From an uncultured Chloroflexota bacterium (GTDB lineage Bacteria > Chloroflexota > Dehalococcoidia > Lucifugimonadales > UBA826): DNA of 64,000 bases. The translations under genes and the position numbers were made by a program. Shown here piece after piece: positions 31,180 through 32,841 of the stretch. The notes below the pieces were generated by a model. That model worked only from the letters and a program-made list of their open reading frames with translations. It did no database searches and was not told the DNA's origin. Positions within the stretch are counted from its first letter, which is position 1; the number at the start of each line of letters is the position of its first letter. The stretch spans positions 12,426-76,425 of the forward strand of contig CAJWWP010000002.1 of NCBI GenBank assembly GCA_913048525.1, in the 5' to 3' direction.

Positions 31180-31608
31180 TCAGCCGGAGGGCTTGAATTT
31201 CAGCAAAGTAAAGTCTTCATCTATATCTTCAAAAGTTGCAATGACATTCATATCCACTTGTACGTTTTCAGGGTCGCATTCCAAAATGTTTGAAGGTATT
31301 TTTGGTCCTTCAGCGAGTTCAATTATGGCGTAAATGTGACCGTTGGCCGATTGGAAAGAAGGATGAACAGATTGCTTGACGTGTGTATAGCTATACACAC
31401 GTCCCTTTCCAGATACTTTTGTCCAGCTTAAATCCATAGACGTACATTCTGGACAAGCTTCTCGAGGATAAAAGAAAATACTTGAACATGAATTGCATTT
31501 GGGCAATATCAGTTCGTGTCTTTTGGTGGCTTCCCAGAAAGGTTTTGACAAATCTTCATGCAATGGGACCGGCAATGGCTTGTCGTACGCTGAACTTTCT
31601 TTTGTCAT
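31180..31608 (-). CDS. Zn-ribbon/OB-fold DUF35 protein (thiolase partner)
   Basis: PFWEA, CNSC..FYPREACPEC, SGKGRVYSYT, IELAEGP. Confidence 0.9.
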   Translation of the reverse strand: MTKESSAYDKPLPVPLHEDLSKPFWEATKRHELILPKCNSCSSIFFYPREACPECTSMDLSWTKVSGKGRVYSYTHVKQSVHPSFQSANGHIYAIIELAEGPKIPSNILECDPENVQVDMNVIATFEDIDEDFTLLKFKPSG

Positions 31609-31671
31609 ATCGTTTCCCCAACCATGGCCATTTCCCAGTTTGCAAAAATTTGGATATTCGGTTTTCTGTGG

Positions 31672-32841
31672 TTAGAGTGTGTCCTCGGACCCGAGGACCA
31701 GCGAGCACATTTCACTCGCTGTACCGCCTCAACCATTAACTAAACACAAATCGTCTTTCTGAACCTGTCTGCTGCCAGCCTTCTCCATTATCTGACGGGC
31801 TCCTTCAATAACATGGCGAAACCCCCCCGCGAGTCCTGGCTGACCTCCAGATAGTTGCCCGCCGTCAGTGTTGATAGGAAATTCACCCTTGTATGTTGTA
31901 TCCGTGGACTCGTAAAAAGGTCCCACCTCACCCTTTCCTACCAGTCCAGCATCTTCGAGGCACACGGCCGCGAGTATGGTGTATCAATCGTAAAACTCCG
32001 CGAATTCCATATCGCTCGGTTCATATCCCGCCATAGCAAGTGCCCTCCTGGCGGAGTCAATCGCTGGAGTTTCGGTGAATTTATCACGTTGCCATATGTT
32101 TGCTTCTCCCTGTTGTAACCCTACTCCCAAAATATAGGCGGGCCTTTTAGAGATAGTTTTGGCTCTCTCAGGTGAGGTTATGATCAATGCGGCAGCACCA
32201 TCACATGGCATTACAGATTCTAGTAGCTTTAACGGTTCGTTGATGTATCTTGAGTTAAGGACATCTTCTTTAGAGGCAGGCTGTCCGTTGAATACAGCAT
32301 TAGGGTTATCTTGTGCATTGAATCTTTGGTCGGCAGCCATTTTTGCCATCTGTTCTTCCGTAGTACCATACTCATGCATATGGCGTCTGTATATGAGTCC
32401 ATAACCGGTATTGGCTCCAGGAGCCATACCATATGGTTCTTCCCACTCAGACCGTACGCTGGGCCCCGCAGCTCCCCTTCCAGCGATTCTTCCCTGACGT
32501 TCTCCTTCTTCTCGAGAATTTCCCATGACAACTAAGGCAGTGTTGCATATGCCTGCGTTTATAGCAGCTGCGGCTACCATAGTTGCGGTTGCCCCGCTAG
32601 CGCCTTGCATGGCAACGCCGGTAGCAAACTGAGGCTTGATTCCGATGTATTCCGCAGTCTGCGGTGGAGCGGCGACACCATCGGTGACCAGGCCATCAAT
32701 GTCCTCTTTTTTTAGACCGGCGTCGCTAAGCGCCAACGCTGTGGCTTCGGCACATAGGCCCATCAAGGAACGACCTTGGTGAACACGTCTTGTTGGGACC
32801 TCACCAATTCCGACAATTGCCGCTTTTCCTCTTAGACTCAT
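31672..32841 (-). CDS. thiolase-family (SCP2/Ltp2-like) protein, 389 aa, with two in-frame UGA codons (codons 286 and 371); candidate selenoprotein
   Basis: One frame: MSLRGKAAIVGIG...PCDGAAA...EFYD*YTILAAVCLEDAG...INTDGGQLS...CLVNG*GGTASEMCSLVLGSEDTL-TAA; the ORF track splits it into 31984..32841 and 31729..31965. Confidence 0.85.
31699..31728 (-). promoter_or_regulatory. candidate SECIS element for UGA371
   Basis: After the UGA: GGCGGUA-CAGCGAGU-[GAAAUGU]-GCUCGCUG; 8-bp stem, loop +16..+22. Confidence 0.6.
31950..31983 (-). promoter_or_regulatory. candidate SECIS element for UGA286
   Basis: After the UGA: UACACCAUAC-UCG-C-GGC-[CGUGU]-GCC-U-CGA-AGAUG; loop starts at +18. Confidence 0.5.

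Follow-up and report, generated by a model that had tools for sequence, protein, structure and literature searches.

Hairpins downstream of two in-frame UGA codons in a Sal-like thiolase-fold gene of a Dehalococcoidia genome are probably ordinary bacterial SECIS elements

We analysed a 64,000-nucleotide (nt) stretch of DNA, hereafter the window, from the metagenome-assembled genome (MAG) of an uncultured Chloroflexota bacterium (GCA_913048525.1, contig CAJWWP010000002.1, positions 12,426 to 76,425), a 1.88-Mb assembly that is 87%-complete; close relatives of the window are labelled as SAR202 cluster, Dehalococcoidia or Chloroflexota. The minus strand of the window carries, at positions 31672..32841, a gene of 389 codons terminated by TAA, which translation, Pfam, alignment with the retro-aldolase CtSal and the reading frame of orthologs identify as coding for a thiolase-fold protein of the Sal/Ltp2-like kind. 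Two TGA triplets lie in frame, at codon 286 (UGA286, 31984..31986, minus strand) and codon 371 (UGA371, 31729..31731, minus strand), and both are predicted to encode selenocysteine (Sec). Each is followed by a hairpin that probably serves as a Sec insertion sequence (SECIS), and a third hairpin abuts the second. Throughout, the U of each UGA is nt 1, so that the pentamer UGUGC shared by the two sites occupies nt 23-27, equivalent to +20..+24. The initial annotation of this DNA had described a hairpin after each UGA with UGUGC at +20..+24 in both, loops ending in UGU with a 3' arm starting with GC, a Cys codon eight codons past each Sec, and a further perfect hairpin at 31681-31698. The sequence and the minimum free energy (MFE) folds confirm the first of these points, the MFE folds alone the second, and the Cys residues (C294 and C379) and the perfect hairpin are likewise present.

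The host protein matches Thiolase_C_1 in Pfam (E = 6e-44), is above the cut-off of no NCBIfam model, and finds its best solved relative, over its full length, in 9MYR (CtSal; E = 1.7e-79). According to PMC12329534, 9MYR is CtSal-DUF35, a bile-acid side-chain retro-aldolase of Comamonas testosteroni, in which Cys304 is the essential catalytic acid. As in CtSal, the thiolase nucleophile Cys is absent, and the Y-D-C-Y catalytic motif of that enzyme aligns with Y284-D-U286-Y287 of the host protein, so that the place of the catalytic Cys304 is taken by the first predicted Sec (U286). The second (U371) lies in an N-G-U-G-G loop and corresponds to Thr389 of CtSal, two residues before the oxyanion-hole Gly391, and the same alignment would place U286 close to U371. 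The next gene downstream (31180..31608, minus strand) encodes a DUF35 or ChsH2-type partner with a zinc ribbon and an OB fold (Pfam OB_ChsH2_C, 3e-14; zf-ChsH2, 9e-11); CtSal likewise has a DUF35 partner, which is a domain of a hydratase there and a separate small gene here. The features of the Sal/Ltp2 type, namely no nucleophile Cys, a Y-D-[C/H]-[Y/F] motif (here Y-D-U-Y) and an adjacent DUF35, are thus all present, and the host protein looks like a thiolase-fold aldolase of the Sal-like kind, in which Sec occupies the place of the catalytic Cys. A Sec that replaces the catalytic-acid Cys of a retro-aldolase, and does not belong to a redox motif, would interest chemists who study selenoenzymes. 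Two selenoproteome papers, the papers on deep-Sep and BSepDB and the BSepDB supplement make no mention of a thiolase-type selenoprotein, and 'thiolase' is absent among the 15 of 45 matches listed in a literature search that paired thiolase with selenoprotein terms; the gene looks like an undescribed selenoprotein family.

Orthologs were compared in two sets. The first comprised 68 related loci with 54-96% identity, largely overlapping an earlier set of 20 loci. Its site-1 rows are the window plus 67 parsed loci (one locus was unparsed), with 34 distinct UGA rows and 18 distinct Cys rows, and its site-2 alignment holds 66 rows, of which 60 are distinct (L079, which holds an N, was excluded). 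The second, class-wide set holds 44 parsed gene copies (L191 was unparsed). A class-wide search returned a match at E <= 1e-120 in 33 of 301 sampled genomes, 32 of which had an in-frame TGA in the gene. Codon 286 is TGA in 47 of the 68 parsed orthologs, window included, and TGC or TGT (Cys) in the other 21; Cys is found there in 7 of the 44 class-wide copies. Codon 371 is TGA in all 66 aligned orthologs. The orthologs stay in frame across both UGAs, and protein and frame 3' of each UGA are conserved to 53-57% identity over dozens of genomes. Contigs from RNA libraries of three studies span both UGAs and the hairpins and show no change at either; one of them departs from the window at a few positions outside these elements. 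These contigs attest presence in RNA libraries only; they do not imply translation, and DNA carry-over is possible.

SECIS 1 (31947..31981, minus strand), defined from the fold and conserved pairs, has a core helix of nt 14-20 with nt 26-32 (31973-31955) and the loop CGUGU at nt 21-25 (31966-31962). RNAfold pairs U14-C15-G16 with C30-G31-A32 and then G18-G19-C20 with G26-C27-C28 around that loop, and UGUGC follows a 19-nt spacer at 31964-31960. The MFE is -10.6 kcal/mol for 52 nt and -7.1 for the core alone; the weak lower helices of the MFE fold (nt 6-7 with 39-40 and nt 9-11 with 35-37) were dropped from the model because they are not conserved. Compared with synonymous recodings of the same peptide drawn from the codon usage of the genome, site 1 falls in the top 3%, 91 of 3000 being as stable. 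The same hairpin is kept in all 47 UGA orthologs, where nt 21-25 read CGUGU in 23, CGUGA in 23 and AGUUU in one, and G22 and U23 are invariant; among the Cys rows these two bases vary and the loop CGUG occurs in none of 21. Pairs 14-32, 15-31, 16-30, 19-27 and 20-26 form in 34/34 distinct UGA rows, whereas pair 15-31 forms in just 2/18 distinct Cys rows. Pair 16-30 is G-C in 24 of the distinct UGA rows, C-G in nine and G-U in one; in the Cys rows it forms in 9/18, always as G-U. The mean hairpin energy over nt 12-35 is -7.4 kcal/mol in the TGA rows against -2.5 in the Cys rows (Mann-Whitney p = 3e-9, uncorrected for relatedness). Base-pair counts that allow G-U separate the two groups poorly (6-7 against 3-6 pairs); energies and individual pairs do distinguish UGA from Cys rows. 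Codon choice points the same way, with Val293 written GUG in 46/47 TGA rows and in 0/6 of the Cys rows that have Val, and the 22 nt that make up the hairpin are constant among rows whose flanking synonymous sites vary. The stem becomes 7 contiguous bp in L122 and L123 only, and the hairpin is decayed or missing where codon 286 is Cys or Ala.

In the class-wide set, the loop CGUG[U/A] is present in 31/31 copies with TGA286 and in 0/7 Cys copies. The ortholog comparison called for in the initial annotation therefore splits the original claim: the site-1 hairpin is tied to UGA and its loop is absent from Cys orthologs, but UGUGC itself occurs in Cys orthologs too.

SECIS 2, or hairpin 2 (31699..31721, minus strand), is likewise defined from the fold and conserved pairs. 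RNAfold gives an 8-bp stem, nt 11-18 with nt 26-33, around the loop GAAAUGU at nt 19-25 (31713-31707), with an MFE of -17.9 kcal/mol over 42 nt, and UGUGC stands after a 19-nt spacer at 31709-31705; in the consensus fold of the orthologs G19 pairs with U25, leaving the loop AAAUG. The site is more stable than dinucleotide shuffles (z = -2.8, 3/200), and 60 of 3000 synonymous recodings are as stable as hairpin 2. A hairpin stands at a fixed distance from UGA371 in 66/66 orthologs, in three pairing registers: GCGAGY.../...GCUCGC, GAGCGUG/CACGCUC and GAGCGUCA/UGACGCUC. The second, with the loop AUUUG or AUGUG, is found in L118-L123, and L117 has an 8-bp stem with the loop UGG at the same place. 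Of the 60 distinct rows, 57 to 60 retain each of the core pairs 13-31, 14-30, 15-29, 17-27 and 18-26, and L068 has one compensatory change from C-G to G-C, in which a synonymous Ser change makes up for an Ala-to-Gly change. Within the loop region only A22 and U23 are invariant.

In E. coli, the loop positions of the SECIS are G23 and U24. As in the general bacterial SECIS (bSECIS) of the E. coli fdhF type, both hairpins lie inside the open reading frame (ORF), directly 3' of the Sec-UGA, with stems that start 10-13 nt past each UGA, and about 20 nt past the UGA comes a small apical loop, which at site 1 carries G-U as G22-U23. They differ from the general type in having no bulged U at a fixed place and, at UGA371, in the extra conserved hairpin that abuts SECIS 2. 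The bSECIS consensus, as set out in the Fig. 2 legend of PMC13188914, comprises a loop of 3-9 nt on a stem of 4-16 bp, an MFE <= -7.5 kcal/mol, a G as the first or second loop nucleotide, mostly as G[G/U], and a distance of 16-37 nt from UGA to loop. Measured against this consensus, site 1 fits in loop size, position of the G, spacing (17 nt) and energy and differs in its upper stem, which is 3+3 bp split by a mismatch; site 2 fits in loop size (7 or 5 nt), in its 8-bp stem and in energy.

A second comparison is offered by the SECIS of selD, which comes from the same genome and lineage (SAR202, Dehalococcoidia) and is presumably served by the same SelB. Its loop in this genome and in G003, CGUGU, is identical to the site-1 loop. 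It lies at nt 36-40, 15 nt farther from the UGA than at site 1, on a stem of 8-9 perfect bp that covaries strongly among relatives (L135-L163), where the loop retains nothing but its central GU. The proposal in the initial annotation that the signal is a lineage-specific SECIS thus lacks support: selD has an ordinary GU loop, and both elements roughly follow the general bacterial model given in PMC13188914. Both hairpins roughly fit as ordinary bacterial SECIS elements with mild deviations, and form no new class.

The genome also encodes the machinery that such elements would need. Profile matches over the cut-off were obtained for selA (540 bits), selB (354.9 bits) and selD (378.3 bits), SelB being matched over profile positions 2-580 of 581, and selD itself contains one in-frame TGA. 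The hairpins, their linkage to UGA across orthologs, the compensatory changes and the Sec machinery genes are established here. Because the hairpins track UGA across orthologs and the machinery genes are present, it is very probable that they direct the recoding of the two UGAs, and we consider it likely that both are ordinary bacterial SECIS elements directing Sec insertion at UGA286 and UGA371. A ribosome arriving at either UGA would then meet SelB, loaded with Sec-tRNA(Sec) and bound to a hairpin whose start lies about 10 nt farther on and whose small apical loop is presented about 20 nt past the UGA; Sec would be inserted and termination avoided. The recoding signal announced in the initial annotation is thus retained as a hairpin, not as the pentamer, which is no conserved determinant (UGAGC replaces it in 23/47 UGA rows at site 1, and it is present in 7/21 Cys rows). 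The hairpins make a strong case that a widespread SAR202/Dehalococcoidia gene is a real selenoprotein gene; they are themselves textbook biology, and the gene that they serve is the more interesting result.

Several observations weigh against this conclusion. The orthologs are related, so that both the row counts and the Mann-Whitney p value overstate independence. The site-1 hairpin is weak, with 3+3 bp around a 1x1 mismatch; against dinucleotide shuffles its z is +0.76, 152/200 shuffles folding at least as well, and it shows one clade-level compensatory pair only, so that its support is mostly UGA-linked conservation and not covariation. At site 2, the spacing is 15 nt if the loop is read as 7 nt and 16 nt if it is read as 5 nt, below or at the lower end of the 16-37 nt given in PMC13188914; by the same account, the loop G is mostly followed by G or U, whereas G19 is followed by A, and the 5-nt-loop reading has no G at the first two loop positions. 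A search of window positions 31500-32200, on both strands, with the 4227 models of Rfam 15 returned 0 matches at E up to 10, although the curated models may not cover this gene family. Unusually for a Sec, U371 is never matched by Cys in the seven full-length homologs without the TGA, which have Asn (6) or Ser (1), or in three PDB alignments; across both sets the residue is Asn, Ser or Thr. A tRNA-Sec was not found in the 87%-complete MAG, where the best match to RF01852 scored 43.8 bits (cut-off 47) and ARAGORN listed 29 tRNAs with no tRNA-Sec among them. Finally, SelB binding and actual Sec insertion are steps that we infer.

The best RF01852 match was rejected as a candidate, being a tRNA-Ser with the anticodon UGA. 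Of 26 genomes searched, 19 have a tRNA-Sec above the cut-off, one of them from the same genus, and the MAG yields just 29 tRNAs; the tRNA-Sec of this MAG was therefore probably not assembled.

Two of these points, the missing tRNA-Sec and the lack of a Cys homolog at position 371, would also be expected if the UGAs did not encode Sec at all and the hairpins were incidental, the gene being a pseudogene, a protein truncated at residue 285 or 370, or one read through a reassigned code or by near-cognate readthrough. Public gene calls agree with such a view in that database homologs are mostly about 370 or about 285 residues long, a pattern that we attribute to gene callers having stopped at the UGAs. 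Set against it are the conservation of frame and protein past each UGA described above, the Cys found at UGA286 in 21 orthologs, a residue that is essential in CtSal according to PMC12329534, and the presence of selA, selB and selD together. Moreover, TGA is the stop of 363 of 1389 long ORFs in the genome, so the code is not reassigned, and none of the genes neighbouring the host gene has an internal TGA. We regard a non-Sec origin of the UGAs as the least probable of the explanations weighed here, and highly improbable in itself.

The third hairpin (31681..31698, minus strand; recognised from sequence, fold and covariation) is a perfect 7-bp stem with a GGUC tetraloop, GUCCUCG-GGUC-CGAGGAC, at nt 34-51 after UGA371, abutting SECIS 2. 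Its MFE is -10.7 kcal/mol; 2 of 3000 synonymous recodings reach the same stability, and none of 3000 (0/3000) matches hairpins 2 and 3 together. In the distinct rows, pair 36-49 is C-G in 25, U-A in 24, U-G in four and unpaired in seven, all of the latter from L117-L123. The shift matches a synonymous change in a Val codon to an Asp/Asn change, and proceeds through U-G intermediates with no C-A; as read from the clades of the tree, it would have arisen in at least 4 clades. This covariation indicates that hairpin 3 is a real element, and it raises the alternative that the SelB-binding element of UGA371 is, or includes, hairpin 3, with hairpin 2 as an accessory or spacer helix of a two-hairpin signal. 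In addition to the covariation of pair 36-49, hairpin 3 lies within every bSECIS criterion of PMC13188914 (a 4-nt loop starting GGU, a 7-bp stem, and a spacing of 37 nt, which is the limit); the selD loop, at nt 36-40, is similarly far from its UGA, and L186 retains a hairpin of different sequence at this place. However, among the UGA371 orthologs the seven that diverge most (L117-L123) keep hairpin 2 and have hairpin 3 in degenerate form or not at all. Conversely, of six orthologs that have lost UGA371, four retain an intact hairpin 3, which is therefore not tightly tied to the UGA; its sequence is, besides, partly fixed by the conserved peptide VLGSE[DN].

We accordingly give this alternative a small chance, well below that of hairpin 2 acting as the SECIS. 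A contribution of hairpin 3 as a co-SECIS or stacking helper is about as improbable, and a function unrelated to recoding, either for the stability of the mRNA or for coupling with the DUF35 gene, is just as conceivable. A slightly more doubtful extension is that UGA371 is served by a two-part signal in which abutting hairpins stack coaxially, the first a helix fixed in position whose register drifts between clades and the second a GGUC-tetraloop helix that covaries by matched synonymous and non-synonymous codon changes. If true, it would be a new SECIS variant that recodes a UGA lacking a Cys counterpart, beside the oxyanion hole of a non-redox C-C lyase in which the catalytic acid is Sec as well, so that the active site would hold two Sec residues.

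Returning to hairpins 1 and 2 as the probable SECIS elements, we asked what the shared pentamer contributes, using other Sec sites of the genome for reference. Candidates came from a scan for coding potential across in-frame TGAs, which is noisy, followed by Pfam. Among 18 scan regions, seven had a domain across the TGA and one a GrdB-like match ending just before it; five of the remainder were neighbouring same-frame genes or upstream in-frame TGAs and five had no domain. This gives eight further Sec-UGA sites (C31:12156, C88:3333, C3:33078, C9:45112, C7:17738, C68:4716, C9:12325 and C32:11628), of which seven are enclosed by a Pfam match and one, in the GrdB-like gene, falls just beyond the match end. 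They belong to selD (C32:11628), three UGSC-family genes, a GrdB-like gene (U-P-A-C), a thioredoxin-like gene (U-P-Y-C), an Rdx/SelW-like gene (C-x-x-U) and a DsbA-like gene. Together with the two sites of the host gene they make 10 validated sites, which is a minimum. Most of the further sites have a GUG-containing apical loop about 20 nt downstream, with loops such as CGUGU, AGUGU, AUGUG, CGUGA and GUGU at similar distances.

The pentamer could be more than a coincidence, namely a lineage-specific SelB recognition motif at +20..+24 that defines a SAR202-type SECIS. It is found at exactly this position in 3/10 validated Sec sites, compared with 0.06% of TGA triplets genome-wide, and UGUG starts at +19..+23 in 6/10 compared with 1.7%; GUG within +18..+26 occurs in 7/10 against a background of 7.8%, and a strict GUG-loop pattern in 6/10 against 0.46-0.58% of positions after any tested trinucleotide. 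At site 2, UGUGC is kept in 61/66 orthologs, as the codon pair AUG-UGC (Met-Cys). The UGUGC bias near the Sec-UGAs of this genome is thus real. However, at site 1 it is present in 23/47 TGA rows, and the other 23 rows with a CGUG loop have UGAGC because Cys294 is replaced by Ser. It also occurs in 7/21 Cys rows, as Met-Cys codons, and five of the 66 site-2 orthologs (L117-L121) lack it and retain the hairpin. Within this genome UGUGC is missing from the genes for selD and for the thioredoxin-like, Rdx and GrdB-like proteins, the GU of the loop alone is conserved in selD orthologs, and once the two prompting sites are dropped and the three UGSC paralogs merged, UGUG remains in 2/6 families.

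The ortholog comparison largely refutes a recognition motif of this kind, which we judge very unlikely. UGUGC is not the discriminating signal and is mostly a by-product of the protein code plus a preference for a G/U-rich loop: both sites code for Val-Cys or Met-Cys seven and eight codons downstream, with selection for such a loop, and Val is always written GUG and Cys always UGC where RNA pairing requires it. Conservation instead concerns the hairpin, its constant distance from the UGA and, in its loop, G22-U23 at site 1 or U23 at site 2.

The hope that the motif could uncover hidden selenoproteins is borne out in a relaxed form only: a GUG loop at about +18..+24 on a stem of at least 4 bp gave 5 Pfam-validated hits among the 6 best in-frame matches, but selD has no TGA-N19-TGTG. 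The scan of selD and fdh suggested in the initial annotation consequently came to nothing in either gene, FdhA having no in-frame stop. FdhA (formate dehydrogenase alpha, C14:9244-11274) is above its family cut-off and, lacking an in-frame stop, is no selenoprotein and offers no SECIS for comparison.

The evolutionary history of codon 286 was followed on a quick IQ-TREE tree, from which rows L096, L124 and L127 (truncated or unparsed) were excluded. Six UGA/Cys switches are needed at this codon, at least 5 of them forced by well-supported branches. L103 (Cys) and L106 (TGA) encode almost identical proteins that differ at codon 286, and the hairpin of L106, an 8-bp stem with a GUU loop, is unlike that of all other UGA orthologs; Cys and Sec may have been exchanged only recently in this pair, the hairpin being newly formed. 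The repeated changes between UGA, Cys and Ala, which the hairpin follows by being gained or decaying, provide a natural series for the birth and loss of SECIS elements.

Genus g45 (L164-L178) carries tandem paralogs of the host gene. In six genomes one of the paralogs is free of TGA and reads Ala286 and Asn371, and in nine others it has two TGAs, the copies being 79-84% identical; Ala in place of the catalytic Sec or Cys suggests that its function has changed or been lost. In the six Ala286 copies, the inner helix of site 1 survives in two and is gone in four. In two of the six Asn371 copies, hairpin-2 bases without any variation among the 66 UGA371 rows are altered, by a synonymous GCG-to-GCA change in one and an Ala-to-Ser change in the other. 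The structures therefore decay once the UGA is gone.

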